Origin: a virus
Lineage: Duplodnaviria; Caudoviricetes
Direction: 5' to 3' (one strand)
IMG/VR virus record: IMGVR_UViG_3300013901_000008
Coordinates: 32,001-96,000 of that record
DNA length: 64,000 nucleotides
The notes beneath the pieces were generated by a model that saw only the letters and a list, made by a program, of their open reading frames with translations, was not told where the DNA came from and searched no databases. How positions within the stretch are numbered: position 1 is the first letter of the stretch; each line of letters opens with the position of its first letter. The position numbers and the translations under genes are program-made. Positions 4,659-35,952 of this stretch are shown piece after piece.

Positions 4659-4974
4659 ATGCCACAATACAAGCGAGGTACCATCGTCAAGAATGGCAAG
4701 CGATACGGCTTCTATCCCGATGGTACATTATATAGAATATACGACACATCACTACCATTCCTTCAGATGGTGAGCGATGCCGCATCGGGCGATACCTTCC
4801 TTCGCATTCGCCAAGCCACGGAACAGGGTTACACCGATTGTCCCGTGGGTGGCGTTTGCGACCTCGCCTATCCTACGTCGGCGATACGTCGAAGTAGAAC
4901 AATCGGGGGGGGGTAGGCTCGCCAATGCCCTTACAAGCCAAGGGCAGCAGCTATGCGTGTTCGTAGAGTTGTAG
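4659..4974 (+). CDS. stand-alone C5-methyltransferase TRD-like module, frameshifted at G9 (4905-4913)
   Basis: IRQATEQGYTDCPVGGVCDLAYPTSAIRRSRTIGGG stops at 4916. Removing one G continues it as RLANALTSQGQQLCVFVEL to 4974. Confidence 0.6.
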
Positions 4975-5082
4975 AGAATAATAAGTAAGAAAGCAAAAAG
5001 ATGATTCTTCATTTTGTACTGTATGTTTTTCTCGGCGGAGAAAAAATCTCTAATTGTTTGAAAGGTTAATTATCAAAAACAA

Positions 5083-5117
5083 GAAGGGCAGGACGTTGTG
5101 ATAACGTTCTGCCCTTC
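5083..5117. terminator. probable bidirectional terminator hairpin
   Basis: GAAGGGCAGGACGTT-GTGAT-AACGTTCTGCCCTTC between convergent operons. Confidence 0.65.
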
Positions 5118-5195
5118 GCATTTCTCTATCATTTTCCCAATGATGGGAAATGATAGCCTAATTTCATTTTGCTAACGTCGGCAAAATGGTGGCTA

Positions 5196-6106
5196 TCAGT
5201 TGAACCATTTCACAATGGTGTCGCCCTTGTAACCTTTCTCCCATACGAACCAAGCGTAAGCGGCTGCACTACCCTGCAAAGCGTTGAAGTCGCCATTAGG
5301 CGCACATTTCAAGCGGCTGCTTGATACCCAAACCCTTGAGGGGGGGTAGTGTTAAACAGATGTCTTCTACCCTTACCCTCTAAGAAAGTAAGCTTCAAAA
5401 ACATCGCTACCTTATGCCCATCTGGAATAATCGCCAAAGACTTCTCTACAAACTCTTTGGCATATTTGTATGGCGGATTGGTAACAATATCGCCGTTCCA
5501 CGAGAGGTTGTCTATCGCCAAGAAGTCTATGCCTCCATCGCCGTAACCTCTATCTACCAAGTCTCGACTCTCTACCTCGTAGCCATTCTTCAGCAAGACC
5601 TTACTGATATGACCCTCGCCGCACGATGGCTCCAATATCGGACCATCGAATTTCTCAATCTTGCATAGCCACTCCGTAGCCGCAGGCTCCGTGGCATAAT
5701 AGTCTTCACGCTGGCGGTCGGTATCGGTATGATTACTTGCGCCTAATGTTTTAAAGACGGAAGCAGTCCCGCCTACCCAATCTTTTTTGTTATCCATATT
5801 ATTATTGTTATTTGAAATGTTATCCCCATCGGTTTCTTCACTCTCGGCAGAAACATTGATTTGACGGTTTATCCACTCTATGATGTCTTCATCAGCATCC
5901 TCGGCCAACTCGTTTAGCGTAACGTAGCCATACGCGTCTTCCATCGGATCATCCTCTGTCACCATATAGCTGATTTGGGAATCCTTAAATCCTAAGGCAT
6001 ATAGGATAGCTTCTATATCGTCATTCTGCAAATTCTTAGTCGCATTATCCTCGTCGTTGATAATTGTGACAGTTCCACTACTGTAATCTAAAATTGAAAT
6101 ATACAT
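5196..6106 (-). CDS. phage adenine-specific DNA methyltransferase (likely internal start at 5797), frameshifted at a C7 tract; in-frame N-terminal small protein
   Basis: DYYATEP, ILEPSCGEGHIS and IVTNPPY motifs. The conserved C-terminus SRVWVSSSRLKCAPNGDF...AYAWFVWEKGYKGDTIVKWFN lies in the -1 frame and ends at 5196. Confidence 0.8.
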
Positions 6107-6128
6107 ATCTTTCTATCTTTTTAAAAAG

Positions 6129-8129
6129 TTACACATTCCTTCCATCCGGCAACACAAACCAACCGATATTTCCTCGCCAATACTTGCAGCCAAGGAAGAG
6201 GCTATCGAAGGCATCGGTGAAATCCGTTCTCTGCTGCAATGGCAAGTTATCCTCCGTCTCGGCTTTCTTCTCCTGACTTTTATCCTTACGGAAGCCCTGG
6301 TAGCCGATACTCACCTCGCAAAGTTGGAGGGCGATGATGAGGTCTGGATTTTGCGTTTGATTGATACGGATGGCAGGATATTCGATACCAGCCAAGGCAT
6401 CGTTGATGATGCGATGCTTAATCTCGTGCTTCTCCGGCACACCCATATCTATCGCAACCACGTTCCAACCATTGCGCTCCAACTCTTTTATTACCGCCAT
6501 GTAGAAACGCTCATCGGTCAAGGCGTAACTGGCACCCTGCTTTGCCGTGGCATCGTAGAAATACGTCACGTCTCGGTTGATGGCTCGCTTTGGTGCGTAA
6601 TAATGAGAGAAATCGGAAATCAGCTCCCGAAGTTTTCGCTCATTCTTCACATAAAAACTCTTGATAACATTCACTGCCTGCACGCCGTCTCGCTCATATA
6701 CTTCCCCTACCACGAGCGTATTGATATTGGCATTGTAATCGAGGGCTATGTAGAGAGGCAAGTCCATGATGCAGTCGGCATCCATGCGGCAATCGTTTCT
6801 TTCAGCCAACTCCTGGAAGTCGGGCTGATAACTTTCGGCGGTTACTTTCTTGCCGTCGATGATGCCCGTAGCCTTGGTGGTCTTGAAGTTGGCATTGGAT
6901 AGAGGGTCTATCTCGTCGGGTATGTAACCATGTACGTGCTCGATGTCGAGGTTGGAATAAAAGCCATCGTTCGACTTCTTGATTTTCACGTTCAGAATTG
7001 AAATAGCGAAGGTCGCCGCAGGCAAATCTCTTTTCATTTGGCGGATGTAACTCTCACCCAAAACGTCCACATTATCGAGGGTAGAGGCACGGCGAACCAG
7101 GAAGGCGACACGGCGTAGCTCCCTCAAATATCCATCGTGGAACTTCTTGGAACGGTCGAACATCTGCATCTCAAAGTATTGGTCGGGAGTCATTAGATAC
7201 TCGTAATCGAAGATGCACTCCGCATCCTCGGCAGAGACGAGCTTGTAATTTACCGCCATATCCACCATATTCTTGGTAAGCTTATCACCATGGTTCGGCA
7301 GAATCTTAAACTGTCCCTCATGGCGAATCATCTTGAGAGCCACGGCACGATATATCTGCCTTTGCTCCGGTTGCACCACACGAGGCGTGTGCCCAGTCTT
7401 CTTGGCATTGTAAAATAGGTCGTTGTAAAAGATAATCTTGTCGGCATACTCCTCCAGTTGCTCCTGCACCCATCGGTAAGTCTTGCCTTTGAACATACCC
7501 GTCTCCACCATAAGGTCAAGCTTCTCTTCCTCTCGTTCCAGCCAACTGCCCTTGGTGGTGAGCGAGGCATCGCTGAGGAATCGGGTGGATTTGTAGAGCG
7601 GATTGTAATCGGTGAATGCGATGTTGCCCAAGGGGTGAGTCTGACCGGATAGGGCAGGCATCAATTCATCGGTTACTTTCTTATAAGGGAAGAATCGCGC
7701 CTCGTCGCCTACCATCGCCGAGAAAGTATAAGAGTTGGCGGAAGCAGTCTGCGAGAGGGAAATCAGCACCCATTGTGCGCCATTGGCAAACCAGATGATA
7801 TTGTCGTAGCTCTTCGGCTTGAAGATACTTTCCTTAACGTGTTTGGGTGGTCGCCCCCAGCCGAAGTGAACGCCTTGGGTGAAGCCAAACATTCGCTCCA
7901 TCGCCGACATGGTACCAGGGATGGTCTTGCCGAAACCCTGTTGGCGAGATACGGCTACCCAGGCTCCCAACATACCAGGCATCGAGTTGGATGCCATCCA
8001 AACGTAGGGAGCCACCAATCCGTCGGTCTTACCCAGACGGCGGGCAGCGATAACTCGCTCGTCCTTGGCAGCCATGTAGAGCGACTGCTGCTGGAACTTG
8101 TTGAGATATATTTGATGTGGTTGTAGCAT
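6129..8129 (-). CDS. terL: terminase large subunit
   Basis: Walker A AARRLGKT, Walker B MVGDEAR, RNase H-like IALDYNAN and C-terminal TDFTDAFDSL. Confidence 0.88.
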   Translation of the reverse strand: MLQPHQIYLNKFQQQSLYMAAKDERVIAARRLGKTDGLVAPYVWMASNSMPGMLGAWVAVSRQQGFGKTIPGTMSAMERMFGFTQGVHFGWGRPPKHVKESIFKPKSYDNIIWFANGAQWVLISLSQTASANSYTFSAMVGDEARFFPYKKVTDELMPALSGQTHPLGNIAFTDYNPLYKSTRFLSDASLTTKGSWLEREEEKLDLMVETGMFKGKTYRWVQEQLEEYADKIIFYNDLFYNAKKTGHTPRVVQPEQRQIYRAVALKMIRHEGQFKILPNHGDKLTKNMVDMAVNYKLVSAEDAECIFDYEYLMTPDQYFEMQMFDRSKKFHDGYLRELRRVAFLVRRASTLDNVDVLGESYIRQMKRDLPAATFAISILNVKIKKSNDGFYSNLDIEHVHGYIPDEIDPLSNANFKTTKATGIIDGKKVTAESYQPDFQELAERNDCRMDADCIMDLPLYIALDYNANINTLVVGEVYERDGVQAVNVIKSFYVKNERKLRELISDFSHYYAPKRAINRDVTYFYDATAKQGASYALTDERFYMAVIKELERNGWNVVAIDMGVPEKHEIKHRIINDALAGIEYPAIRINQTQNPDLIIALQLCEVSIGYQGFRKDKSQEKKAETEDNLPLQQRTDFTDAFDSLFLGCKYWRGNIGWFVLPDGRNV

Positions 8130-8188
8130 TTGAGTCTTGCAATGTTAAATGTTAAGTGTTATCCTGAATACAAATCCTTTTGAGAAAG

Positions 8189-8455
8189 CTAATCGAAATC
8201 CCCATTTATCAATTTATGGGCAGCTGTCTCTGCGTCGCTAACGGCGATTTGAGCCGTGTCGATGATGGTTTGAAGAACATCATCCGATACGCCCAAATCC
8301 TTTTGGATATTCTTGAATCGCTTTTCTATGGTAGTTTGTGCAACAGCATTCATATAATTTACGTAAGATTCACTAATCGCCTTACGTGGTTCCTTTACCC
8401 AGTCAAGGAAATCTTTCTTCCAGTCTTTCCAAGTTTTAATCCTAATTACAATCAT
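8189..8455 (-). CDS. hypothetical protein
   Basis: 88-aa ORF in the minus-strand operon. Confidence 0.6.
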   Translation of the reverse strand: MIVIRIKTWKDWKKDFLDWVKEPRKAISESYVNYMNAVAQTTIEKRFKNIQKDLGVSDDVLQTIIDTAQIAVSDAETAAHKLINGDFD

Positions 8456-8460
8456 AGTCC

Positions 8461-8784
8461 TTACATATTGAATTGTCGTTTCAGAAACTTATCGCCTTTT
8501 ATGAGGTTGACGATTTCCTCTTCAGTATGTTTGCCTTCCCAGAATAGTTCAGTATGGTCCATGCATCGCTTTTCATCAACAGAAAAAGGTACCCCGTAGT
8601 TAGTGTAAACCACTCCATGATGTGTGATGAGATGGCGACCTGGATTCTTTTGAATGTTATGAATCCACATCTCGTTATCGCATTCATACCATATAGAATA
8701 CTCCTCTGGTGTCAAAGTCTTATCCATACCTATTGGGGCATGACCCGAACCTCCGTTCGTTCCGAAATAAATAATTTTAGCCAT
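8461..8784 (-). CDS. hypothetical protein
   Basis: 107-aa ORF in the minus-strand operon. Confidence 0.65.
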   Translation of the reverse strand: MAKIIYFGTNGGSGHAPIGMDKTLTPEEYSIWYECDNEMWIHNIQKNPGRHLITHHGVVYTNYGVPFSVDEKRCMDHTELFWEGKHTEEEIVNLIKGDKFLKRQFNM

Positions 8785-8805
8785 AATCTTAATGTTTTGA
8801 AATCT

Positions 8806-9475
8806 TTAGAATAGGGTAGGCTGCATCATCTCCAATTCGATGCGCTTGCAAGCCTTGTCGTAATACTCCTTGTTTAGTTCAAACCCGATGAAGTTGCGCT
8901 TCTCCTTGATGCAAGCGATGGCAGTAGTGCCGCTGCCCAAAAATGGGTCTAAAACCGTATCGTTTTCATTAGTGCTTGCAAGAATCAGCTTACGAAACAG
9001 TTTAGTGGGCTTTTGTGTGGGGTGTATATTGCTATGTCCGCAAGGATAACGTAACACGGTATTCTTACAATGAAGGTTAAACACCCCCCCCCGTTTTCTT
9101 GCCATATACGCACAGCTCTACACCGCTTAACCAAATTTTATTGCCATTCATCGGCGAAGGGTTTGTCTTTTCCCAAACTATAACCCTCGTGCTAAGCTTA
9201 TACTCTTGCATCACGGAACGAATAGTAGAAAGTTGATTAATACCACAGAACATATAAATGCTACCTTTTGTTTTTCTGCAAAGGGTAGATGTTAATTCTT
9301 TTAGATTAAACAAACCTACATCCGCATATTCTTTATTTAAACTACGCAATCCATTATCTGGGCGATTACATTCGTTATAAGGAATATCCGTAAGTACGAG
9401 CGACACACTTGCATCGGGTATTCGCTTCATGCCCTCCAAGCAATCCTCATTATATACTTTATTCAGTTCTATCAT
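8806..9475 (-). CDS. N4/N6 DNA methyltransferase (beta class), split by a frameshift at G9 (9084-9092)
   Basis: N-half has DCLEGMK and LTDIPY; C-half has HPTQKP and VLDPFLGSGTT...FIGFE. A G8 tract would join the halves. Confidence 0.85.
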
Positions 9476-9726
9476 CTGTCTTTAAATGTTAATGTATTTT
9501 CGTGCCCGATATGCCATTTCTGGCAAACCTTGCACTGGTACGCCCGATACCCTTGCGCCACAATCTTAGGGTGCAACTGCAAGTATTCGCAGGCATCGTC
9601 CTCCGTCTCATAAGCCACCTTCGCCTTCCACCCATGCGGGCCTTTACGAGTCCAGTGTTCAGGATCGGGACGGAACGGCGGAATCTTATTATGGTAATGG
9701 TTGCTCTTTTTGCTCCTCATCGCCAT
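9472..9726 (-). CDS. small Zn-binding hypothetical protein
   Basis: AYQCKVCQKWHIG motif. Confidence 0.65.
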   Translation of the reverse strand: MAMRSKKSNHYHNKIPPFRPDPEHWTRKGPHGWKAKVAYETEDDACEYLQLHPKIVAQGYRAYQCKVCQKWHIGHENTLTFKDR

Positions 9727-10477
9727 TACCTCCTTTCTCCTTATCGTCCATCATCTCCTCCATATACTCCATATAGTCCGGCACCTTGCCATCGCCTACG
9801 GAATGAAGGTTCTCTTCCTCGGCTATCTCCTGCATATCCTTTTGCGTAAGACCATACTTGCGAGCCATCTTGCGCTTGTACTCATCGGTATAGTTCACGC
9901 GGTCGTGCTTCACGATGCTCACGTCTTGCGTAATGGCAATGCGGCTCATGTCCGGCATCTCCTCGGTGGCATCCTTCTCCTCCTGGAAGTTACCGTAGAT
10001 ATTCGCCAAGGCATCCATGCCCTTGGAAACAGAGCGGTCGTTGTTCTGCATCTTGCCAGTGCGAATGAGCCATTCGGCGGAAGAGATATACATCTGCTTG
10101 TGTCGGGGACTCTCGTCGGTAGTGAAGAAGCGAATGATATGGTTGCAGACAGCCACATCATTGTTGAGTTCGGTGATGGTGCGAGGCTTAATGTCGCCAT
10201 TCTCGTCGATGTCGATATGCAGAGCCATCACCATCGCCTGTGCCTCCTGGTTGCCCTGTCCTGCTTGGTTCAAGAGCATCTCGTAGTCACGTCGTGCGAT
10301 GTTGCGGCAGGTGGTGCGAGGGTCTATGTCCTTGTTTTGCACCCATCGGGTATAAAACTCCTTGCAGAGCTGCATCCGGTAGCGTTGCTCCAGCTTGGGG
10401 AACATCGTTTCCAGGCTTACCCCATTGGATAGCCACTTGTCGATGCGGGCAAGGGTGTTTTGTGTCAGTTGACTCAT
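9689..10477 (-). CDS. putative terminase small subunit
   Basis: First gene of the terL operon, helical, with an acidic C-terminus; positional inference. Confidence 0.5.
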   Translation of the reverse strand: MSQLTQNTLARIDKWLSNGVSLETMFPKLEQRYRMQLCKEFYTRWVQNKDIDPRTTCRNIARRDYEMLLNQAGQGNQEAQAMVMALHIDIDENGDIKPRTITELNNDVAVCNHIIRFFTTDESPRHKQMYISSAEWLIRTGKMQNNDRSVSKGMDALANIYGNFQEEKDATEEMPDMSRIAITQDVSIVKHDRVNYTDEYKRKMARKYGLTQKDMQEIAEEENLHSVGDGKVPDYMEYMEEMMDDKEKGGNGDEEQKEQPLP

Positions 10478-10556
10478 GTTTGTATCATTGTCTTATAGTG
10501 TTTATGTATGTTATGTATCGTTCTCTTTCTCTTCCGAGAAATCTTTACTTCGCCTA

Positions 10557-10593
10557 CAAAATTATAAAATTCCCCATAAACGGTAGGGACAAA
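10557..10593 (-). promoter_or_regulatory. late promoter (leftward, terminase operon)
   Basis: Minus strand reads TTTGTCCC-N21-TAATTTTG. Confidence 0.7.
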
Positions 10594-10603
10594 GCTAAAG
10601 GCC

Positions 10604-10640
10604 TTTGTCCCCACCAATCAGAGCAAAACCATTACCTTTG
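10604..10640 (+). promoter_or_regulatory. late promoter (holin/neck/tape measure operon)
   Basis: TTTGTCCC-N21-TACCTTTG. Confidence 0.75.
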
Positions 10641-10724
10641 CCTTAGATTTTTGGTTTCATCATCGCAAAACGAGAAACCGAGACTCAGGATAACATACAT
10701 TTATTATATAACAAAGAAAAGACA

Positions 10725-11408
10725 ATGCAAACTATCATTCCTTATGTCACAAGGTTCCTGGCAGCCATCATCGGCATCATCTGGTGCTACATCGAACCTT
10801 CCATCAATTACATCGCCGTATGCGCCTTCGCTCTCCTCCTGGATTGCTATACAGCCTGGCGATTGAACCGACGCATCTACAGCCGCTATCGAGAAGCCAT
10901 TAAGAAAGACCCTCGATGTAAGATAGACGGCAAGCTGAAATCGAAGAAGATGGCAAAGATGGTGCAAGATTTCTCGGTGCTCATCATGGCGATATTCCTT
11001 GCCACGCTCGTAGATACCGTGATACTCGACTACATGAATCCTCTTCACCTCGCCAACTATCTCGCCGCCATCTATTGCAGCGTCCAGTTTATCAGTGTTC
11101 TCGAAAACGAGAGTACCTGCAATGGTGCAGCCTGGGCAAAAGTGATGCAGAAGATTGTGGCTGATAAGACGGAACGACATTTCAATGTCAAGATGAAAGA
11201 CTTGATAGAAGAGGAAGAGGAAATCAAAGGCAAAGACCCCTACGGGCATAAAAGCAATTCCGAGATAGAGGAGGACGAAAGAAGCAATGTTTCTTCTGGC
11301 AGGAAATCCCCATCGCCCGACAACGATTCTGCACCATCAGGAGAAGAGTCTGCATCAAATGAAGATGAAGATGATGCAGATAAATCGGAAGATACCAACT
11401 ACCCTTAA
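10725..11408 (+). CDS. phage holin family protein with acidic disordered tail
   Basis: Several hydrophobic segments and an ISVLEN motif typical of Bacteroidetes phage holins. Confidence 0.7.
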   Translation: MQTIIPYVTRFLAAIIGIIWCYIEPSINYIAVCAFALLLDCYTAWRLNRRIYSRYREAIKKDPRCKIDGKLKSKKMAKMVQDFSVLIMAIFLATLVDTVILDYMNPLHLANYLAAIYCSVQFISVLENESTCNGAAWAKVMQKIVADKTERHFNVKMKDLIEEEEEIKGKDPYGHKSNSEIEEDERSNVSSGRKSPSPDNDSAPSGEESASNEDEDDADKSEDTNYP

Positions 11409-11454
11409 TTTCGGTACGGAATAAGTTAATAATGTGTTAATAATCCATTGAATT

Positions 11455-20463: not shown

Positions 20464-20757
20464 ATGAAGACTAAAAGAAGAATGCCGCAGCCTCCTAAAG
20501 GTAGTTGGCTCGACAGAAATGGACAGCGATGGATTAAAATATTCTTCGATGTGATGTCCGGTTTCGGGGGGGGTGAAAAGTTCCTTCGTCAGGTAGGTAT
20601 CGTATTCCCGATGTTTTTCAGTTTTGAGCTGGGGCAATATGTGATAGATATGGATGCCTGTAATCTTCAAGAGAAGATACAGGATAGCTATCCTACATTA
20701 AAGAGATACTCGAATCTGCATTTCGAGATAACGAGTAATAAAATCTTACAAAGATAA
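20464..20757 (+). CDS. hypothetical protein containing an in-frame G8 tract
   Basis: 97-aa ORF; G8 at 20566-20573. Confidence 0.6.
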   Translation: MKTKRRMPQPPKGSWLDRNGQRWIKIFFDVMSGFGGGEKFLRQVGIVFPMFFSFELGQYVIDMDACNLQEKIQDSYPTLKRYSNLHFEITSNKILQR

Positions 20758-25696: not shown

Positions 25697-27376
25697 ATGA
25701 AAGGACTTTTAGAAATCCTTACCGAAAAGAAGTGGATGGTATCGCCAACCTTTGTGCATGGCATCAAGAAAGCCTTGGAGCAGAACCTGAATACCCATGC
25801 GGTATTCGAGAAGCCCGAAAGGACTTGTGGTTTCGTCAAGGAGACACTTCCTGATGGTGCGATGATTTATCCGGAGGAATATCAGATTTCCGAGGATGGC
25901 AAGCTGGTACGTGGCAACTGGGCTTTGGATGAGGACGACCTTCAGACGTTCCCATTCGTGAGCGTGCTCACCGTGGATGGTCCTATCACTCGCAATGGCG
26001 GTGGTTGCTCGTATGGCAGCATCGACCATCGAGACATGATGATCCGTGCGGCCAATCATCCGCTCTGTCGAGGTCACATCTTTATCATCAATACGCCTGG
26101 TGGTTCGGCTTGGGCTAAGAACGATTATCAGCAAGCCATCGAGTATGCCCGTTCCTTGGGTCAGCCAGTTATCGCCTTCGTAGATGGCATGTGTGCCAGC
26201 GCAGGTATGTACCTCGCTTCTCTTTGCGACGAGCGATACTACATGCACCCGAAAGACGAAATCGGTTGCATCGGTGTGATGGCAGCATTCTACACCCAGG
26301 CAGATGGTAGCAAAAACCAGTTTACGGATGAGACCTACCACGAGTTGTACGACCCTGAGAGTTTCGACAAGAACCGTGAGTTCCGTGATATAGCCAACGA
26401 TGGCAACACCAAGGCACTCGTAAAAGAACTTGCCGAGTTGGGCGTGGAATTTAGAGCCGACGTTAAAGCGGCTTGCCCTAACGCCAAGGATGAGCATCTA
26501 CACGGAAAGATATTCGATGCAGAAAAGGTAAAGGGTATCTTGATGGACGACCAGAGTGATTTCTTCTCTTGCGTACATCGTTGCTTCGACATCTACGATG
26601 GTAAGGCAGAACCTATCAGCCGTGAGGCTCCCGATGAGCCGGAAGACGAGCCAAGTAGCGACCCAGCCGAAGACCCTAACAAGGCTTCTTCTCGAAAACA
26701 GGATAACAACAATTCTAAACTCAATATCAATATGGCAAACTATCCACTTATCAGTGCTGCCTTGTGTCTGAAAGATGGTGATTTGGCAGTTAAGGAGGAT
26801 GGCGCATTTATGAATGCCCCTCTTCTCGATACGCTCGAAGCACATCTTAACACAACCAAGCAGCAGGTAGTCGATGCACAGCAGAAGGCTACCCAGGCAG
26901 AGCAGAGTCTTGCCGACTTGCAGGCTAAACTCGATGCAGCCAACGCGCAGATAGCAGAAGCTAAGAATGCACAGACGGTGGCTGAAAAAGCACTCGCCGA
27001 TGCAAACCAGGCTCACGCTAAGGCAATCGAAAATCTCAACACCGAGCATTCTGATGCCCTCGCCAAAAAAGACGAGACTATCGCCAAGAAGGACGAGGAA
27101 ATCAAAAATCTTACTTCCGACAAGGCTAAGGCTGACGAGGAGTTGAAGGGTGCAAAGGATGCACTCGCCACCGCCGAGCAGACCATCGCCGACAAGGATG
27201 CACAGATCAAGGCTCTCGGCGAGGATGCAGGTGAGGCACCTGATGCAGGTGCGGCTCCTGAGAACAATGGCGAGGGTGCAAAGGTTCAGACTCTCCGTGA
27301 GTTCGACCCATCTCCTTACAAGACCAACAAGGAACGTAAGGAAGCATTCGAGCGTTACAAGCGTGGTGAGGAGTAA
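25697..27376 (+). CDS. S49 (ClpP/SppA-like) prohead protease fused to a coiled-coil scaffold
   Basis: INTPGG, DGMCASAGMYLAS and IGCIGV motifs; C-terminal Ala/Lys/Glu coiled coil. ATG at 25697 preferred over TTG at 25685. Confidence 0.88.
   Translation: MKGLLEILTEKKWMVSPTFVHGIKKALEQNLNTHAVFEKPERTCGFVKETLPDGAMIYPEEYQISEDGKLVRGNWALDEDDLQTFPFVSVLTVDGPITRNGGGCSYGSIDHRDMMIRAANHPLCRGHIFIINTPGGSAWAKNDYQQAIEYARSLGQPVIAFVDGMCASAGMYLASLCDERYYMHPKDEIGCIGVMAAFYTQADGSKNQFTDETYHELYDPESFDKNREFRDIANDGNTKALVKELAELGVEFRADVKAACPNAKDEHLHGKIFDAEKVKGILMDDQSDFFSCVHRCFDIYDGKAEPISREAPDEPEDEPSSDPAEDPNKASSRKQDNNNSKLNINMANYPLISAALCLKDGDLAVKEDGAFMNAPLLDTLEAHLNTTKQQVVDAQQKATQAEQSLADLQAKLDAANAQIAEAKNAQTVAEKALADANQAHAKAIENLNTEHSDALAKKDETIAKKDEEIKNLTSDKAKADEELKGAKDALATAEQTIADKDAQIKALGEDAGEAPDAGAAPENNGEGAKVQTLREFDPSPYKTNKERKEAFERYKRGEE
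26732..27376 (+). CDS. probable nested in-frame scaffold protein (MANYPLIS...)
   Basis: AT-rich leader with CAGGATAACA (26699) before an in-frame ATG that follows a disordered linker. Confidence 0.55.
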   Translation: MANYPLISAALCLKDGDLAVKEDGAFMNAPLLDTLEAHLNTTKQQVVDAQQKATQAEQSLADLQAKLDAANAQIAEAKNAQTVAEKALADANQAHAKAIENLNTEHSDALAKKDETIAKKDEEIKNLTSDKAKADEELKGAKDALATAEQTIADKDAQIKALGEDAGEAPDAGAAPENNGEGAKVQTLREFDPSPYKTNKERKEAFERYKRGEE

Positions 27377-27476
27377 GCACTCGTAGCTCCATCCCCCATC
27401 GGGTAATACTAAAGATTCAGTTTAAGCAAAAATTTTCTTTTCATTTTTTATTTAATTTTTAAAAGGATAACAAATT

Positions 27477-28772
27477 ATGGCAACAACTCCTAAAGATTTT
27501 ATCGGCAAAGATGCCCTTCAGCACGTTGCCGAGCAGGTAACTAAGGAAATCCTCATGGGTCCTGGTTATACTGATGCCGAGGAGATGGATCGCTTGGGCA
27601 TCGACATCGTGTCTGGTGTTCAGTACAAGCGTACCATCCACATCCTTCTCCGTAAGGGTGGTACCACTCGCCGTAAGGACGTTCATACCAAGGTGAACAG
27701 CGAGGTAGGTTTCCTCAAAGAGCGTACATTGACCGTGAAGCTCGCTTGGGACCATTATACCGACAATATCGACAAGTACTGCGAGACAGTATTTGGCACA
27801 GACGCACAGGGTCAGTACCCTCTCTCTACAGAGGCTGCTACCGCTATCCTTGCCAACTATGCCGACAACTTGACCGCTTGCTTGTGGAACGGTGATATTG
27901 ACCTCGACAAGGGCGAAGCAAGCACACCTGCATCCGACCAGGCTTTGGCTCTCTATGATGGTTTCCACACCTGTGTGAAGCACGACGTAGAGGACGGTCT
28001 TATCAGCGAGGCTAACGGCAACTTGATTCCTTGTGATGCAATCACAGAGCCTGCTGACAACAACGACTCTACTCCTTACGACAACTTCTTGGCTTGGCAC
28101 TTGAAGTGGGATGCACGTCTTCGCAAGCAGAATGTACTCGTTTACATGAGCGAGCAGACAGCCCAGTACATCGCAGCAGGTTACGCCAACAAGTTCCATG
28201 GCAACTTTAAGGTTGACTATGAGGACGGTGGTAACTTCAAGCTTCCTGGCTTGAGCCGTGTTACTATCTGCCCTATCGCAGACTTCGGCGAGGGTGATCG
28301 CATGTACGTAACCATCCCTAAGAACTTCGTTTATGCTGTTGACTCTGAGGGCAACCAGACCTACGTAGGCGTTAAGGTTGGCACCGACGACGATATGCGT
28401 GATATTCAGTTCCAGATTCAGTCAATCCAGGGTGCAGGTATTCGCAACCCATTCAAGTATGCGTTTGCGATGTCTGATGGCTCTCTTGCCAAGGCTGAGT
28501 ATGTGGCTGGCGATTACACCAACACCAAGTTGGTAGTAAACATCGTAGGCGACAAGGAAGGTACTGTTGATGGCGAGGTTAGTGTAAACGGCACTAAGTA
28601 CGAGGCTCCTGTAGATACATCTATCAACCAGGTTCTCTCTTTGGAGGCTAAGGATGGCACCAACTTCACATTCTCTCACTGGGAGAATGGTGACACCAAC
28701 AAGAAGCGTCAGATGATTGCCACCGGCATGAGTATGGGTGTTACAGCCTTCTTTAAGAAGGCTAACGGGTAA
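27477..28772 (+). CDS. major capsid protein with C-terminal InlB B-repeat/Ig-like domain
   Basis: Follows the protease; LWNGD and LYDGFHT motifs; C-terminal EAKDGTNFTFSHWENG. Confidence 0.8.
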   Translation: MATTPKDFIGKDALQHVAEQVTKEILMGPGYTDAEEMDRLGIDIVSGVQYKRTIHILLRKGGTTRRKDVHTKVNSEVGFLKERTLTVKLAWDHYTDNIDKYCETVFGTDAQGQYPLSTEAATAILANYADNLTACLWNGDIDLDKGEASTPASDQALALYDGFHTCVKHDVEDGLISEANGNLIPCDAITEPADNNDSTPYDNFLAWHLKWDARLRKQNVLVYMSEQTAQYIAAGYANKFHGNFKVDYEDGGNFKLPGLSRVTICPIADFGEGDRMYVTIPKNFVYAVDSEGNQTYVGVKVGTDDDMRDIQFQIQSIQGAGIRNPFKYAFAMSDGSLAKAEYVAGDYTNTKLVVNIVGDKEGTVDGEVSVNGTKYEAPVDTSINQVLSLEAKDGTNFTFSHWENGDTNKKRQMIATGMSMGVTAFFKKANG

Positions 28773-28808
28773 GTTTCGGCTTCTCCACAAACTCTAAATA
28801 AATCCTTT

Positions 28809-28862: not shown

Positions 28863-28897
28863 CGTTTTTATTTGTTTGATTAAAAATTGATACAACT

Positions 28898-29455: not shown

Positions 29456-29666
29456 TAGGCGGAACTGATAAGAGCGACATTAATTCCGCCAACACACCGT
29501 CTTCGGATAGCGCAGCCGAGAATGCTGCATCCAAGCAGTCTTCTAAGTCGAGCGCAAAGAACGTAGCTTCCATCAATGATGAGACGGATACTCCCACTGA
29601 AGACGAAGAATAATCGCTCCCCGAAATTCTGATGGATTTCGATTGGCAATTTAAACTCATATTTCC

Positions 29667-29720
29667 AAAAGCCTCGGTATCGAGCCTTCTATGATGTAAG
29701 GCAAGGTATCGGGGCTTTTT
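29667..29720. terminator. terminator hairpin
   Basis: AAAAGCCTCGGTATC...GGTATCGGGGCTTTTT. Confidence 0.65.
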
Positions 29721-29772
29721 CTATGAATATATCCAAGATATAGCCAATAATGTATAATTTACGTTAAACGCT

Positions 29773-29870
29773 ATATCCCAAACATTATTTATATATCTAA
29801 AAATTTGCGTATATTATATTTATTTCTTAAATTTGCAGCCGAATTTAAATAATAAATATAACTGGGATAT
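29773..29870 (+). promoter_or_regulatory. early promoter with ATATCCCA boxes
   Basis: TTTG...TAAATTTG (29828-29835); ATATCCCAAA at 29773 and inverted TGGGATAT at 29863. Confidence 0.65.
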
Positions 29871-29897
29871 TTTCGTATAAGATACACAAAGACGAAT

Positions 29898-30059
29898 ATG
29901 GCAGTCAATTTGAAACATTGTTCCATGAAGCCAGATACCAAGCCATGCTGGGTATGTTTGCATGGTGCTCTCTGCATCGGTGGCTTATACTGCATGAAGC
30001 ACAAGCGATACATACAGTATCAAGATATAGCAGAATGCGAGGACAAAGAAATCGCATAA
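29898..30059 (+). CDS. small Cys-rich protein (53 aa), absent from the ORF track
   Basis: MAVNLKHCSMKPDTKPCWVCLHGALCIGGLYCMKHKRYIQY...; first gene after the promoter. Confidence 0.6.
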   Translation: MAVNLKHCSMKPDTKPCWVCLHGALCIGGLYCMKHKRYIQYQDIAECEDKEIA

Positions 30060-30146
30060 CACATCGTAGGCAATAAACGAACAATGGATGATAGATAATA
30101 AACAAATAAACAATAAACAACAGATAGTAAACAACAAATTACGACT

Positions 30147-30539
30147 ATGGCAGAATTTAAATCCATACTCCTTACGGAGCAGGCTTGGATGAACAGCCAT
30201 CTAAGCGTTGCCCGATACAGCGGAGGCGTAAGCATTCCAACCGAGGACGGACAGAAGACGTTCCTCATCGTGGATGAGTTGGGCAGAGACCTCACACAGG
30301 TCAGCATTCCGCCCGGTAAGCCAGCCGACTTGATAGACCAAGAGTTTATCCCTTATTACAAGACCTTGGGCAGAGATGTGTTCATCGGTATCGTAAAAGC
30401 CAATCCGCTTGTTTCCCGAAAAGAAATGAAGAAAATCCTAAAGGAGGCAGCAGACTGCAAGAAGTTGGGAGACAAGAAGAAGAAAGAGGCTGAGGAGGCA
30501 AAGATAAAAGCAATGTCGCCCACCCTCGATTTCGAGTAG
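30147..30539 (+). CDS. hypothetical protein
   Basis: 130-aa ORF. Confidence 0.7.
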   Translation: MAEFKSILLTEQAWMNSHLSVARYSGGVSIPTEDGQKTFLIVDELGRDLTQVSIPPGKPADLIDQEFIPYYKTLGRDVFIGIVKANPLVSRKEMKKILKEAADCKKLGDKKKKEAEEAKIKAMSPTLDFE

Positions 30540-30732
30540 TATATATTATATATAAGGAGTAAGAGCAAGACGATTCTTCATTCTTCGTTCTTCACTCTTC
30601 ACTTAAAAGGTAAATGACTTCGGAGTTTTGGCTTCCGTCAAGATTATCGCCGAACTACCTATCATCATTTGCCGATAAATAGATAAGAATCATTTTTATT
30701 AACAACAAAAATATTAAAGGATTTATTGAGAA

Positions 30733-31176
30733 ATGAGAACATTAACAGAGTTTCAGAACGAGGTGCTCACTCCCCTTCGTGAGGAGCGAGACAAGAAGAT
30801 GGCGGCAACCTACGCCAAGGAGCATGAGATTAAGAAGACGTACATGGATATAAAGAACCAGTACTCTCTCGAACAGATTGCTTTTGAGCGTCAGCAGAAG
30901 AAAGAACTTGATGATTTCACCGCCGAGCAGGAACGCAAGTTCCGTGAGTTTTGCATCAAGGCGAAAGCTGCAAAGGGAAAAGCCTACGATACTTGGCACC
31001 AGGGTTGCTGCGAGGTGAAGATTCAACGCCGTAGTATTCACGAGACCTATCAAAATCAGTTTGACCTCGCCATCTCCGAATATAATAAGGAGCGAGTGGC
31101 AGCAGGTACCCCCCCATTAATGTTCCATTACCCAGGACAAACACTGGAGGAAGTGAGTCAAGAAAGTAAGTCATGA
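30733..31176 (+). CDS. hypothetical coiled-coil protein
   Basis: 147-aa ORF with ATGA overlap to the next gene; in-frame C7 at 31109-31115. Confidence 0.7.
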   Translation: MRTLTEFQNEVLTPLREERDKKMAATYAKEHEIKKTYMDIKNQYSLEQIAFERQQKKELDDFTAEQERKFREFCIKAKAAKGKAYDTWHQGCCEVKIQRRSIHETYQNQFDLAISEYNKERVAAGTPPLMFHYPGQTLEEVSQESKS

Positions 31177-31886
31177 GTTTTAATGGAACGAAAACACCTC
31201 TCAAACCTACGGGTAAGGCGAAGTATCAGATACCTTTGCGAGAAACGCCCACCAGCCATGGTGCGAAGAAGTATTGCTTAGAGGGAGAGCTGAAGGAGAA
31301 GTTCATCAAGCTCTTCCCCAAAAACTCCAACCGCAGAATGATGAAATGGTTTGGTATCTCCTTTTCCACCCTTCGCCGATTGAAGACCGACTTGGGATTA
31401 GAGAAGGACATGAAAGCCATCAAGCACCAACAGGCGATGGACGTAAAGAAGGTTTGCGAGAAGAACGGATATTACGATTCCTTACGAGGCAAGCCCATGC
31501 CCGATGCTTGCCAGGAGGCTTGCAAACAGCTAAGGGCATCAGGATTCCACCCGATGAGAGTTATCAAGGAGCGACAGCCCCGAAGATACAAGAATATTCT
31601 CCGTAGGCGCAGCGAGGCAAGGAAGAAGTTGATGGCAGACGAGAAGCGCAGATTGCTTTATGGTTTGGACCAACATACCAAGCTTCACGTCACATTGAAA
31701 CCGATGAACTCCTCTGCATCCTCTTTCAAACATCTTATGAAGAGAAAGTACAATTACTTTTCCATTCGTGAGCATCCATGGTGGATATGTTACGATAAGC
31801 ATACTGACCGCCGACCTCGAAGCGAAGAGACTGCCAAGAAACATGGCTTCATTATCGTAGAGGGAGAGGATGATCCTGATGAGTAG
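31173..31886 (+). CDS. basic hypothetical protein with HTH-like segment
   Basis: NRRMMKWFGISFSTLRRLKTDLGL. Confidence 0.6.
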   Translation: MSFNGTKTPLKPTGKAKYQIPLRETPTSHGAKKYCLEGELKEKFIKLFPKNSNRRMMKWFGISFSTLRRLKTDLGLEKDMKAIKHQQAMDVKKVCEKNGYYDSLRGKPMPDACQEACKQLRASGFHPMRVIKERQPRRYKNILRRRSEARKKLMADEKRRLLYGLDQHTKLHVTLKPMNSSASSFKHLMKRKYNYFSIREHPWWICYDKHTDRRPRSEETAKKHGFIIVEGEDDPDE

Positions 31887-31912
31887 ATTATAACATAAAA
31901 GGTAAAGAAGAA

Positions 31913-33013
31913 ATGAACACAAAACAGCAAAACGTTCTTCGCTCATTGCTGAAGAAGTATCAATATAAGAATGTGAGCAACATGGTGCGCATGGCTCTCG
32001 GCATCAACTACGAGAATTTCTTGCAGAAGACAGAGCCGCTCTATGTGGTACCACGCATCGCTTCCTGCTATCCCGAAGGCGAAGACAGAAATTGTCTGAA
32101 TGGCAAGGTATATAAGGAGTGGCTGGATATGTTGGTGCGCAAGCGTTGGGTGAACCCTATCAATGAATACACCGACCAATATGGAGCGCATATCGTGCTG
32201 CAAGCTATCTACTATCTTATCGACAACAATCTTTGGGATGTTTATGAGGGCAGACTTGCCCTGGATGCCAAGGAGGATAATTACTACGATAAGTTGGGTG
32301 ATATGCCTTCCGCCATCGCCATGATGGAGGAAAATAACAAGAAAGAGGCAGAGGCAGTTCAAGAGGAAGAGAAGACGCAGCCATCATTGCCAAGCGAGGG
32401 AAATAGCAAAAACAACAACCAACGCCCTGAATGGTGGAACGCTCCAGATTATATTTTAAATGCAGACGAAGCGATGTCTTTGATGGGAGAGTCCGATGAA
32501 ATGTTCTTGCATCTTACGCAAAATATGAAGCGTCTGGCCAACTATATATATACTGCTGCCGAATCTGATGTTTTGCGTGAGAAAATATCCGACCAGCAGA
32601 GTGAGCTGGAAAACGAAAAAATGGTGCATCAAAAGCAAGTTTCCGTCTTGCAGGTACAGATTGATGACTATAAAGCCAAACTAGATGATGCCATCGCCAC
32701 GGCAAAGAAAGCGAGCGATTACATCGCCAATCTAAAGTTGAAACTTTCTGCCAAGGAGACCGAGGCTCAAAGGGAATATGATGAGCTGAATGCCAAGTAT
32801 AAGAAAGCCCTCGATGAGCGAGACGCAGCCGACCGAGACTTGGAGGCTTGCAAGAAGCTTCTTGACGAGGAAGCCAACAAGCAGCAGTTGCCTAAGAAGA
32901 AGGTGATACCTTTCAGCGTTCTTGATGCAGTTCCTCTGCTGGGCAAGGGAGTAATGACAGGCTTGGTTCCGGTACTCGCAAGATATAACATTGTGGTGGA
33001 CTATGACAAATAG
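31913..33013 (+). CDS. hypothetical protein with C-terminal coiled coil
   Basis: 366-aa ORF. Confidence 0.7.
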   Translation: MNTKQQNVLRSLLKKYQYKNVSNMVRMALGINYENFLQKTEPLYVVPRIASCYPEGEDRNCLNGKVYKEWLDMLVRKRWVNPINEYTDQYGAHIVLQAIYYLIDNNLWDVYEGRLALDAKEDNYYDKLGDMPSAIAMMEENNKKEAEAVQEEEKTQPSLPSEGNSKNNNQRPEWWNAPDYILNADEAMSLMGESDEMFLHLTQNMKRLANYIYTAAESDVLREKISDQQSELENEKMVHQKQVSVLQVQIDDYKAKLDDAIATAKKASDYIANLKLKLSAKETEAQREYDELNAKYKKALDERDAADRDLEACKKLLDEEANKQQLPKKKVIPFSVLDAVPLLGKGVMTGLVPVLARYNIVVDYDK

Positions 33014-33027
33014 GGAGGCAAGAGCGT

Positions 33028-33870
33028 ATGGAGAATCATATACCAGGCGAAATCATGCGCAAGGTTAAACAAGACCTGATACACGAGGTATTGGCTATCC
33101 CGAACAGAATGACGCCGAGCAATGAGCCTATCAAACTAGAACCCACCTTTCGAGGCAGTGAATACTACGACTCTAGTATGTATCTGAAGTTTAACAACGC
33201 CATCGAGCGAATGGCGCAGCCGAGGGAGGTAGAGCAGGTAGAGATAGACGTGGAGTCTGTTTGTCGAAACGAATGGGGCAGTGTCTATGCTGTGGCGGCG
33301 CATTACCCAAGCGGATTGGTAGATACGGATATGCTCACGAAGATGAGGGGCACCGACAAGATGTCGAAGGGCAGAGGTTACGGATGGTCTTCTTACCAGA
33401 CTAAGTTTCGTTTTCACCCTCTTTTTGTTAGTGCTTACATCGCTTCAATATATGGCTTTCAGAAGGTAAGTGATTTGCAAATAGCCAAGGAGTTGATGGT
33501 CGGTTTTACAGCTTTAGGTAAGTCTGTATTTTATGGCAACTATTGTCTTTCAATCTGTGCTGGCGGCATCGAAATCATAAGGTGCATCGAGATTAGCAAG
33601 GGGGAGGGAATGACAGTAGAGGGCAATGTTTATCCAAGACCAACGGAAGCCATTGACTTTATTCCTTATGAGGAGATTGATAGTGCAAGCATCAAGAATC
33701 TGTATAGCCACGTCTTGCATAGATATGTGGAAGGCGAGGATTATAATGTAGATGATGTGGTAAATGATGATCTCGCCAAGGAAATCTTTGAGTTGAGTCT
33801 TTCGAGGCTCAAGAAGAAAGTGGGCGACAAGGGTATGGATCTTTTAACCAAGATGGATGAAAGAGGATAG
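33028..33870 (+). CDS. hypothetical protein
   Basis: 280-aa ORF. Confidence 0.65.
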   Translation: MENHIPGEIMRKVKQDLIHEVLAIPNRMTPSNEPIKLEPTFRGSEYYDSSMYLKFNNAIERMAQPREVEQVEIDVESVCRNEWGSVYAVAAHYPSGLVDTDMLTKMRGTDKMSKGRGYGWSSYQTKFRFHPLFVSAYIASIYGFQKVSDLQIAKELMVGFTALGKSVFYGNYCLSICAGGIEIIRCIEISKGEGMTVEGNVYPRPTEAIDFIPYEEIDSASIKNLYSHVLHRYVEGEDYNVDDVVNDDLAKEIFELSLSRLKKKVGDKGMDLLTKMDERG

Positions 33871-34045
33871 TTGGAAGATAAGGGTGAATATCGACGGTGA
33901 TACACTTCACCTGAAGGCATCGCTCAATGGCAAGCAGATAGATGTAACCAACAAGACTTCGGCTTGCAATATAGCGGGGTTGTCGTCGAAAGTATCTGCC
34001 AAGATAGTAGCACACTTTAATCAAGTGGAAATTAATAAAGAATAG
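33857..34045 (+). CDS. hypothetical protein
   Basis: 62-aa ORF overlapping the upstream stop. Confidence 0.5.
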   Translation: MKEDSWKIRVNIDGDTLHLKASLNGKQIDVTNKTSACNIAGLSSKVSAKIVAHFNQVEINKE

Positions 34046-34066
34046 AGGTTAATAAAGAAAAAGAAA

Positions 34067-34813
34067 ATGGGAAAGGGAAATAACATCGGATATATCCGAA
34101 GAAGTGAGGATACGGAGGATTTCCAGTTTGGCGAATTGAGTAATGGCGATATGGTGTATGGCTATATGCTTGGCGATGATGGCAAGCCAAAGGACAAGGA
34201 GGTTTGCATTGTGAGTGATACGTCCAAACTCTTCGCTGGTGTATATACGGCTCGCTACCGTCTGAAGATATGGACGGGCATAGCTACACAAGAGGACATG
34301 GCGAACAGTCATAATCGAATGCCTATCCGTGAACTCACCATTGTTCCTATCAGTGAGGATTGGTTCGCCGAGAACTCTGCGATATTCCGCGAGATAAAAG
34401 GAAGTGAGGATATTAAGCCAAGAGACAGCGATATGCGTGTGGCATTCTGCTATGAGTTTAAGGCTCGTCGATGGCAAGCCACTTATTACGCCGTAGGCTT
34501 CGAGTTGAGTTTTACCGACCTTACCTTGTACGACAAGCTGCAGCAGGAGGGCTTGCAGTTTACGGCTTGCGAGGCGCAATCGAGAGGCAAAGCCACCATC
34601 GTTCAGATTGTGAAGCCAGTAAAACGTGCGGCAAGCAATAGCAAGGTGCATGATACCTTTACTGCGGCAGCCGTGGCGCAATTCATCGCCGTGCATGAGT
34701 TACAGCATTTCCTCAGACTCTGCGGTATCTTTGATACATTTAATGTGCCTAAAGAGCTGTTGAGCGACGAGAAATTATCGCATAAGGTAGTAGATGGAAA
34801 GGTTGTGGAATGA
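34067..34813 (+). CDS. hypothetical protein
   Basis: 248-aa ORF; C-terminal AVHELQHFLRLCGI motif common in Bacteroidales phage accessory proteins. Confidence 0.65.
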   Translation: MGKGNNIGYIRRSEDTEDFQFGELSNGDMVYGYMLGDDGKPKDKEVCIVSDTSKLFAGVYTARYRLKIWTGIATQEDMANSHNRMPIRELTIVPISEDWFAENSAIFREIKGSEDIKPRDSDMRVAFCYEFKARRWQATYYAVGFELSFTDLTLYDKLQQEGLQFTACEAQSRGKATIVQIVKPVKRAASNSKVHDTFTAAAVAQFIAVHELQHFLRLCGIFDTFNVPKELLSDEKLSHKVVDGKVVE

Positions 34814-34848
34814 CGTAAGTAAACAATAAAAACAAAAAGCAAAAAGAA

Positions 34849-35652
34849 ATGAAGACATTTTTCAAAGAGCTGGGCATATCATTAGTGCCCGTTATTCTCG
34901 CACTATTGGCAGCAATCGCCATGCGGTTGATAATGGATTCTGCATTCAGAGTCTTGCATCCGTCAATATTCTCTAATGAAGTGTATGAGTGCTGCGTATC
35001 GGCTATGTGGTATGTAGTATTGAGTAGCATCGTCGTATGCTGGGTATTTATCCCTTTGATGGCTTGGCGCAAGCGAAAGATTATTGCCTGGCGTTTGGCT
35101 GACCTCGAAAAGGAAGACGGCGGCAACCATTCATCTGGGGATGAAAAGGATAATAACGGTTCATCGGACACCACAGACAAGGAAACGGTAAACGTTCAGA
35201 TTTGCCCAATGAGACAAAAGTGGTACCGTACTATTCGCTTTATCTTTTGCGCCAATATTAAGGATATGACGTTCGGTAGCGTGCAGATGGATATACCTAC
35301 GGAAGATGAAAAAGAGTTTGAGCCGTTTTGGAGAGATTGCGATGCTTTCATCTATGCCCTGTGTGTAGATAATGTAGCAAGAAAACATGGTGTCGGCGGC
35401 TCGCTATTGTTCGCCGTAGAGAACCAGGCTAAAATAGAGGGTTGCAAGACGGTAGCCCTGCGTTGGGATGATAGGGAGAGTGAGCCTTGGGTGTTAGATT
35501 GGTATAAGCGCAAGGGATATAAGGAAACAAAGATAGAAGGCGACGGACACAGCCATTTCCTTGTAAAGCAACTCGGCAAGAGCGAGACTGGCGGACCATC
35601 GAATGATGATGAGGAGCCATCTGGTAGCGATAACAATGCAGCCGATGAGTAG
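34849..35652 (+). CDS. membrane-anchored GNAT acetyltransferase
   Basis: Two N-terminal TM helices; FIYALCVDNVARKHGVGGSLL and WYKRKGY GNAT motifs. Confidence 0.75.
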   Translation: MKTFFKELGISLVPVILALLAAIAMRLIMDSAFRVLHPSIFSNEVYECCVSAMWYVVLSSIVVCWVFIPLMAWRKRKIIAWRLADLEKEDGGNHSSGDEKDNNGSSDTTDKETVNVQICPMRQKWYRTIRFIFCANIKDMTFGSVQMDIPTEDEKEFEPFWRDCDAFIYALCVDNVARKHGVGGSLLFAVENQAKIEGCKTVALRWDDRESEPWVLDWYKRKGYKETKIEGDGHSHFLVKQLGKSETGGPSNDDEEPSGSDNNAADE

Positions 35653-35824
35653 TAAGGTTAGTAACAGCAGTATTCGTACCATCGTGGTGGGCAGCTTAGA
35701 CATCCCTCCCTTTGATAAGCGGTTCGACATCGCCCGTCGGGTATATTCGCCCGACGGCATCGCTCCCGCTTGTCATACATGTGGGGGGGGTGGCTTGCAG
35801 CCTAAGATATTGATTGAGTTATGA
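35645..35824 (+). CDS. stand-alone C5-methyltransferase TRD-like module (59 aa), with in-frame G8
   Basis: RRVYSPDGIAPACHTCGGGGLQPKILIE; G8 at 35783-35790. Confidence 0.6.
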   Translation: MSSKVSNSSIRTIVVGSLDIPPFDKRFDIARRVYSPDGIAPACHTCGGGGLQPKILIEL

Positions 35825-35952
35825 GAGCAATCGGCATCTTTCAATATCCGAGAGGTTTTAATAAGGGCTTGTTTCTAAAGACGAGACTTAGCCCTACGAT
35901 AACCATCCACGCTTGGCAAGAGAATACTTATCTCTTCGAGAGGTATGAGTAA
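35821..35952 (+). CDS. stand-alone C5-methyltransferase TRD-like module (43 aa), absent from the ORF track
   Basis: MRAIGIFQYPRGFNKGLFLKTRLSPTITIHAWQENTYLFERYE; ATGA-coupled to the upstream module. Confidence 0.55.
   Translation: MRAIGIFQYPRGFNKGLFLKTRLSPTITIHAWQENTYLFERYE

Follow-up and report, generated by a model that had tools for sequence, protein, structure and literature searches.

The DNA examined here is a 64,000-nucleotide stretch of a tailed-phage genome (the window; bases 32001–96000 of the 106,521-bp IMG/VR virus record IMGVR_UViG_3300013901_000008, in which large terminase and tape-measure genes are present), and its subject is a set of very short genes whose products resemble the target-recognition domains (TRDs) of cytosine-5 (C5) DNA methyltransferases. 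C5 methyltransferases are textbook single-chain enzymes, and the multispecific ones of phages keep their recognition domains in cis. In this phage, a permuted C5 methyltransferase that lacks a TRD probably works with TRDs provided in trans by a library of phase-variable minigenes. Thirteen such modules, of several sequence types and mostly about 40–60 amino acids in length, accompany a single phage core, with the minigenes themselves spanning 33 to 105 codons.

Scanning of all six frames with family hidden Markov models (HMMs) established that the window holds four TRD-like minigenes, all on the plus strand, rather than the three small open reading frames (ORFs) reported in a preliminary description of this DNA. 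The three ORFs named there (W1, W2 and W3) are all found where they had been placed, but the first, listed there as a small ORF at 4659–4974, is frameshifted by a run of nine guanosines (G9), and a fourth minigene, W4, had been missed. W2 (35645–35824) encodes a 59-amino acid TRD module of the RVY..GI.P...T.GGG..PKI type that terminates in an ILIEL tag, and a G8 homopolymer within its Gly codons (35783–35790) is in frame (ON) in this record. The W2 start codon overlaps the stop of an upstream GNAT-like gene by 8 nt (ATGAGTAG). The start of W3 (35821–35952), which specifies a 43-amino acid module of the QYPRG.N.G...PTIT..W..N type with an ERYE tag, sits in the ATGA that closes W2, as the preliminary description had recognized. 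W4 (46868–46999) likewise encodes 43 amino acids, belongs to the P.L.A.DYK type with an ILYEYS end, and carries an in-frame G7 homopolymer in its W-G-G codons (46926–46932). It is flanked by tail genes and matches its family HMM with an expectation value (E) of 1.5e-24.

W1 in this record is a frameshifted gene, with no single open ORF. Its upstream frame (4659–4916; 85 amino acids) ends at a TAG right behind the G9 homopolymer (4905–4913), which occupies Gly-Gly-Gly codons and leaves the gene OFF. Residues 1–50 make up an N-terminal part specific to the family, and the TRD-like portion extends from approximately residue 50 (IRQATEQGY...RRSRT.GGG). The conserved end of the family (..NALTSQGQQLCVFVEL) runs on in the +1 frame up to 4974, where a C-terminal segment (4912–4974) reads G RLANALTSQGQQLCVFVEL before a stop at 4972–4974 and retains both the conserved NALT motif and a VEL tag. 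A tract of G8 or G11 would restore a single W1 ORF of 104–105 codons, and more than 40 relatives carry the gene at 105–108 amino acids; W1 is 75% identical over 90 amino acids to these intact ORFs, and matches the family HMM with E=1.5e-42.

All four family profiles match the variable regions of proteins carrying the C5-methyltransferase domain PF00145, with E values reaching 1e-14 to 1e-25, which bears out the suggestion in the preliminary description that the small ORFs resemble the TRD units of multispecific phage C5 methyltransferases, a likeness for which it had proposed an HMM search. The W2-family profile (A4), searched against 5.8 billion proteins, retrieves full-length PF00145 enzymes with E values down to 2.5e-25, including a named Brevibacillus enzyme (E=6.6e-12), and the W3 profile (A5) matches PF00145 proteins at E values of 4e-17 to 1e-4. 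Nearly all of the 261 matches to the W4 profile (A7) are PF00145 proteins. The W1 profile, searched against 1.84 billion representatives, yields 305 representative matches, the top 45 or so of which are small proteins; among the long matches tested, 10 of 10 are PF00145 proteins in which the match is internal to the enzyme. W1 matches just before motifs IX–X wherever Pfam resolves that stretch, W4 aligns to residues 274–311 of a 383-amino acid C5 methyltransferase, and W3 aligns to residues 293–328 of P0239, a canonical 400-amino acid methyltransferase, directly before motif IX. In P0239 a W2-like module is followed by a W3-like module and then by RIRKLTP (motif IX), the same order in which W2 and W3 occur in the window, and another protein, P0059, holds both W2-like and W1-like modules. 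Profile searches of the PDB gave, for the W2 family, a weak match (E about 1) on the M.HhaI TRD at residues 239–257, corresponding to its recognition loops, and on M.MpeI; for the W1 family they gave spurious beta-repeat matches alone, to the N-terminal half, and these were rejected. Judged by the profile matches to enzymes, the minigenes are homologous to C5-methyltransferase TRDs. Among the proteins matched by the A4 profile is a natural fusion, P0001, in which the same core as that found in this phage continues in frame, at its C terminus, into a W2-type module.

A two-subunit form of such an enzyme was also noted in Dulem virus 40, a deposited lemur-gut phage (L084; PP511379.1), in which positions 2471–4411 encode an alpha subunit of 258 amino acids (motifs I–VIII) followed by a beta subunit of 373 amino acids. 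In the latter, at least six TRD module types are fused before motifs IX–X, and this form is likely a step in evolution between enzymes with fused TRDs and those whose TRDs are fully detached.

The preliminary description had reported that no C5 catalytic core is visible in the window and had proposed that a TRD-less or split enzyme be sought elsewhere in the genome, and both points proved well founded. PF00145 is absent from the window and matches the 106,521-bp record exactly once, at genome positions 26951–28096 (core gene at 26960–28363, in whole-record numbering), 3.6 kb before the window start. The core is one ORF of 467 amino acids in which PF00145 positions 268–322 (motifs IX–X; 26951–27262) precede positions 23–219 (motifs I–VIII; 27500–28096) within one open frame, and motif X therefore comes before motif I. 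The protein starts only about 15–17 residues before motif IX (IRKLTP) and has no N-terminal TRD ahead of that motif, and past motif VIII it has a conserved C-terminal extension of about 110 amino acids, with a conserved stretch of about 50 amino acids and a variable tail, the TRD again being absent. At least 80 viral contigs, about 50–110 kb in length, carry a homologue of this core at 65–86% identity, and the protein is always 432–467 amino acids long. A tRNA-Thr gene lies just upstream of the core in this record, and nine further TRD-like units surround it in alternating frames. W1, the W2–W3 pair and W4 are located 8, 39 and 50 kb from the core, respectively, with no catalytic motifs within kilobases, and none of them is thus a TRD held inside an enzyme between motifs VIII and IX.

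Comparison among related phages, which the preliminary description had put forward as the way to recognize neutral decay, revealed no such decay. Homologues of the window units are present in 35–61 of the 80 core loci, where they cluster directly upstream and downstream of the core; in one locus (L063), ORFs of 39–108 codons, all starting with ATG, follow one another closely. Every unit begins with an ATG of its own, in a conserved place, and closes with its own stop, and ORF lengths are held tightly across dozens of genomes (43, 105–108, 49, 58 and 54 amino acids for individual families), with synonymous divergence among the compared genomes of about 0.5. The pooled ratio of nonsynonymous to synonymous polymorphism (pN/pS) for seven families is 0.16–0.52, and in gap-free subsets it is 0.15–0.22 in frame versus 1.06–2.9 in the other two frames, whereas a core block gives 0.16. 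A small, closely related W2 subset gives a noisier value of 0.73. On the strength of these comparisons, the minigenes are real conserved genes rather than debris.

Although the families differ in their loops, most end in two hydrophobic residues followed by E-Y-E/D/A, or in V-E-L. This tag pattern terminates 21% of the small plus-strand ORFs near the core versus about 1% of those elsewhere, and unbiased clustering of small-ORF families across the clade recovered 11 families with the tag in at least half of their members, as well as further TRD-like families, among them the ones to which W2 and W3 belong. The tag is also where successive genes interlock: for 283 of 422 tag-bearing ORFs, the ATG of the next cistron falls within the last 8 or 4 nt, being supplied by the TAT-GAx codons that specify Y-E/D. 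Because the next ATG overlaps the tag codons in this manner, the reading frame shifts stepwise along the array.

Several local features of these junctions deserve mention in their own right. W3 closes with the usual TATGAGTAA junction (35943–35952), the embedded ATG of which opens just 5 codons, and a GTATGATTAA junction word precedes W4 (46858–46870) even though the gene upstream is a tail gene. These words at the end of W3 and the front of W4 look like vestiges of lost neighbours, and their presence suggests that minigenes moved together with their junctions. One tag-bearing family (cluster 43; ..VLIEYE), found in 15 related loci at a median start of about 7950, is 33 amino acids long, and where TRD loops would be expected it has an acidic stretch alone (..SEEEEDDPNDM..). 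Its product might be a blank plug, or might compete at the core or regulate it.

Co-folding with the core, also proposed in the preliminary description, was carried out for W2. The core and W2 were supplied as alignments, with three runs and three controls, and the predicted complex reached an ipSAE of 0.87 versus 0.10 for the best of the three controls. The mark for this interface score was attained in 58 of 80 complexes of solved structure and in 2 of 110 pairs that were mismatched. At least 90% of contacts are common to the runs, and the model confidence (pLDDT) of the partner is at least 77. In the predicted complex, the tag of W2 (residues 52–59) pairs with core residues 13–20, a strand that leads into motif IX, while the RVY..GI.P loop (residues 33–44) touches core residues 319–323 (QNRD, motif VIII) and 342–354. 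The model thereby places W2 where the TRD sits in single-chain enzymes. Because enzymes of this kind have solved structures, such an outcome is to be read as likeness to the canonical arrangement rather than as proof of binding. The natural fusion P0001 lends independent support to docking between the core and W2.

Many of the minigenes contain long runs of guanosine. The genome has nine G/C runs of at least 8 bases, whereas about 1.7 are expected from base composition by our own estimate, and five of the nine fall inside TRD minigenes, which occupy approximately 1.5% of the genome; on these figures, the enrichment exceeds chance. The codon involved is otherwise sparingly used, with GGG making up 7.4% of Gly codons and GGG-GGG occurring in 1 of 105 Gly-Gly pairs of long ORFs. 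Among W1-family members with long runs, the gene is in frame with G8 (12 cases) or G11 (1 case) and out of frame with G6, G7 or G9 (13 cases), and of those with short or interrupted runs 35 of 37 are in frame. Frameshifts in the relatives are almost confined to runs of 6 or longer, and the families of minigenes A, D, F, W2 and W4 show the same relationship between tract and frame, with several relatives carrying a W4 that is truncated at the G run. The record itself has W2, W4 and A in the on state, and the G9 of W1 and the G8 of both D and F leave these three genes off. Outside the window, G runs are located at genome positions 28637, 29044 and 29387. These are coding homopolymers whose length sets the frame on or off. 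Elsewhere, tract lengths were taken from Logan contigs rather than raw reads, and contigs of near-identical DNA show the W1 tract as G7 in two sequencing runs and as both G7 and G8 in one run, in addition to the G9 of the record. In their placement and length variation, the poly-G runs appear to fit contingency loci. The earlier proposal that specificity may be switchable through the G8 and G9 tracts is thus supported by comparison between genomes, but that comparison stops short of proof.

Long G/C runs were observed in other phage methylase genes as well. An NPPY-type adenine methyltransferase gene on the minus strand (5196–6106) is broken, with a 265-amino acid ORF that ends in ..GFGYQAAA and a conserved C-terminal end (..AYAWFVWEKGYKGDTIVKWFN) that lies in another frame (5196–5312), downstream of a C7 run (5340–5346; G7 on the plus strand). 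A beta-class N6/N4 methyltransferase gene, also on the minus strand (8806–9475), is split by a C9 run (9084–9092) into halves that both match PF01555 (N-terminal, 9077–9475; C-terminal, 8806–9105). With the minigenes, the NPPY-type gene and the beta-class gene, three kinds of phage methylase gene therefore bear such runs. Only two long G/C runs lie outside recognizable methylation genes, one being a C8 at genome position 19130, outside the window, and the other an in-frame G8 (20566–20573; ..GFGGGEKF..) in a 97-amino acid ORF beside a primase-like gene (20464–20757). A chimeric minigene in a related locus (L037:5152–5274) has a W4-type N-terminal half and a W1-type C-terminal end joined exactly at their G runs, which suggests a further role for these runs as sites of recombination or deletion at which hybrid modules arise.

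These observations can be assembled into a mechanism in which the phage would build a C5 DNA methyltransferase from separately encoded parts. The core gene would supply catalysis, and each of the 13 minigenes would supply one TRD module. The C-terminal hydrophobic strand of the module would pair with the N-terminal strand of the core just before motif IX, and its recognition loops would be set against motif VIII, rebuilding the small domain without a covalent link. Exchange of one module for another would redirect one and the same core to other target sequences, and phage DNA might thereby be shielded from several host restriction enzymes, as it is by the multispecific methylases of Bacillus phages, with slippage at G7–G9 runs in Gly-Gly-Gly codons toggling single specificities. 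From the data described above we infer that core and modules bind physically, that the enzyme methylates DNA, that the modules differ in specificity and that switching takes place in real time. A more far-reaching version of this scheme, to which we give even chances, is a Type I-like C5 system with one core, a library of free 4–12 kDa subunits docking through a common tag, and stochastic poly-G switching, which would serve as a bet-hedge in which the methylomes of sister virions differ, between host restriction that is methylation-sensitive and host restriction that is methylation-dependent. The preliminary description had offered three roles for the small ORFs, and given the predicted docking, the natural core–TRD fusion and the common C-terminal tag, subunits acting in trans fit best, with a recombination reservoir and stand-alone anti-restriction binders fitting less well.

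A number of observations weigh against the trans-acting scheme. Co-folding covers W2 alone among W1–W4, and AlphaFold2 gave low confidence both for W1 alone (pLDDT 46) and for the P0001 fusion (pLDDT 55, with the block alignment). The PDB profile matches to the M.HhaI and M.MpeI TRDs are feeble, scans of the minigene products against Pfam and PHROGs returned no match, and W3 of the window is the most divergent member of its family, with 44–56% identity. Homopolymer sequencing or assembly errors could partly explain the differences in tract length between assemblies, for which contigs were the source. Furthermore, in the closest engineered analogue, made from M.MpeI and M.SssI, a permuted large-domain fragment and the remaining fragment failed to complement one another (PMC5944983).

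The frameshifts of W1, D and F in this record, the divergence of the window W3 and the existence of fused relatives would all be expected if the minigenes were decaying remnants of a once-fused multispecific methylase, with the frameshifts representing ordinary inactivation. Under that explanation, however, pN/pS should not equal the level of the core at 0.15–0.22 while the off-frames exceed 1, nor should starts, stops and lengths have stayed conserved in dozens of genomes whose synonymous divergence is about 0.5, nor should frameshifts be confined to long G runs with the downstream frame still open and conserved. Decay is largely refuted by the selection data, the conserved starts and stops and the placement of the frameshifts, and we regard it as extremely improbable. 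Purifying selection indicates that there is a function without specifying which one, and the products could instead have retained a TRD-derived fold for binding DNA or host restriction and methylation enzymes, as anti-restriction factors or regulators that do not serve the core. Several copies are indeed scattered among unrelated genes, and some tag-bearing families, such as the acidic 33-amino acid family, are without a TRD motif. Such a role is nevertheless very unlikely in view of the tight clustering of the units around a sole TRD-less core in 80 relatives, the fusion of one module to that core in nature, and the predicted pairing of the shared tag with the core N-terminal strand, as well as the consideration that a core without any TRD would otherwise be unable to read DNA.

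Another possibility is that the parts are encoded separately but made as one chain, with programmed frameshifting, hopping or transcriptional slippage joining minigenes to each other or to the core to yield a conventional multispecific enzyme. The shifted frames of neighbouring minigenes, with their 8-nt or 4-nt overlaps, are compatible with this, the G runs could support slippage, and fused natural forms exist, in that P0001 is a core plus a TRD and both P0214 and the beta subunit of Dulem virus 40 are TRD arrays with motifs IX–X. Against recoding, each unit possesses its own conserved ATG and its own stop, and TATGAnTAA, the motif at the overlaps, signals start/stop coupling and is not a known slippery heptamer. 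The core frame is closed by three in-frame stops before the next unit begins, and W1, W2–W3 and W4 cannot be fused to a core that is 8, 39 and 50 kb away. We consider recoding very unlikely. Stop-codon reassignment or readthrough from the core into the next unit was rejected separately, since the three in-frame stops that intervene are all different. The remaining alternative concerns switching alone: the TRDs could be real and act in trans while the poly-G lengths reflect sequencing or assembly artefacts, or fixed strain differences. Tract lengths do come from contigs alone, homopolymers are error-prone, and most of the relatives derive from one large metagenome project. The runs, however, consist of an otherwise avoided Gly codon and recur in at least six unrelated minigene families and in two other methylase genes, the G7 and G8 forms are both present among the contigs of one run, and the lengths span G6–G11 rather than one unit on either side of a mode. 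We therefore regard an artefactual or fixed origin of the tract lengths as unlikely, although less so than the other alternatives, and retain a trans-acting, phase-variable TRD library as the explanation that we favor.

The surroundings of the window minigenes have features of their own. The gene translationally coupled to W2 encodes a GNAT-type acetyltransferase with an N-terminal membrane-like region (34849–35652). In 25 related loci, too, a GNAT gene adjoins minigenes of the W2 type (L050 and L025 are examples, at about positions 9000–10400), and the database protein P0006 is a frameshifted W2 running into a GNAT domain. A megablast search of the window segment 33000–38000 against deposited phages returned zero matches. 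The leader of W1 (4614–4658) is A-rich, with repeated GTAAAAAG-like words, and in one sequencing run many short contigs match it, at a depth far above that of the flanking DNA, so that it resembles an intergenic repeat common to many phage genes or genomes. Just 3′ of W1 (4972–5080), a contig from one public run swaps 107 bases for 767 others, which is a strain-level insertion or replacement.

Were the proposed scheme correct, it would show how multispecific enzymes present many TRDs to one active site, and a phase-variable methylome would constitute a new layer of phage counter-defence in abundant gut phages. It would also furnish small, swappable specificity modules ready for programmable cytosine methylation, a goal that has been hard to reach with engineered split enzymes (PMC5944983). 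In addition, dozens of conserved small ORFs in these phages that are unrecognized by Pfam and PHROGs are shown to be real genes.

Several known kinds of system come close to this arrangement. The multispecific C5 methyltransferases of Bacillus phages, M.SPRI, M.Phi3TI, M.Rho11sI and M.H2I, were described by Trautner, Noyer-Weidner and colleagues. Like the system described here, enzymes of the M.SPRI and M.Phi3TI type are encoded by phages and combine one catalytic framework with several short TRDs, each thought to give one target, and the window modules are homologous to the tandem modules of multi-TRD enzymes (P0014, P0059, P0239 and the Dulem virus 40 beta subunit). The TRDs of the M.SPRI and M.Phi3TI type, however, are consecutive in one polypeptide between motifs VIII and IX, whereas in this phage every TRD has a gene to itself, with its own start and stop, the core is both permuted and TRD-less, and many modules carry slippery G runs. 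Neither the tandem array in one polypeptide nor the canonical motif order is present. In M.AquI (alpha/beta) and M.EcoHK31I, activity requires two polypeptides, and Dulem virus 40 exhibits this alpha/beta form. Those enzymes rely on one fixed partner that holds the TRD together with motifs IX–X, whereas in the present phage the core includes motifs IX–X, and what is detached is just the TRD, in many alternative versions. Systems of Type I with HsdS, and phase-variable Type I and III systems (phasevarions), also have a separate specificity component that directs a common catalytic one, with repeats that toggle, but they belong to unrelated families, carry out adenine methylation and are cellular, and HsdS is a protein of about 400 amino acids with two TRDs. 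Permuted C5 methyltransferases in which motifs IX–X come before motifs I–VIII include M.BssHII, M.Alw26I, M2.Eco31I, M.Esp3I and M2.BsaI (PMC5944983). The core of this phage has the same order of motifs, but the N terminus of the known permuted enzymes lies in the variable region, and for this reason they keep a TRD before motif IX. The literature searched gave no account of a C5 enzyme served by free TRD subunits; the architecture proposed for the phage system would be new, whereas multispecific, naturally split and permuted enzymes are each known already.

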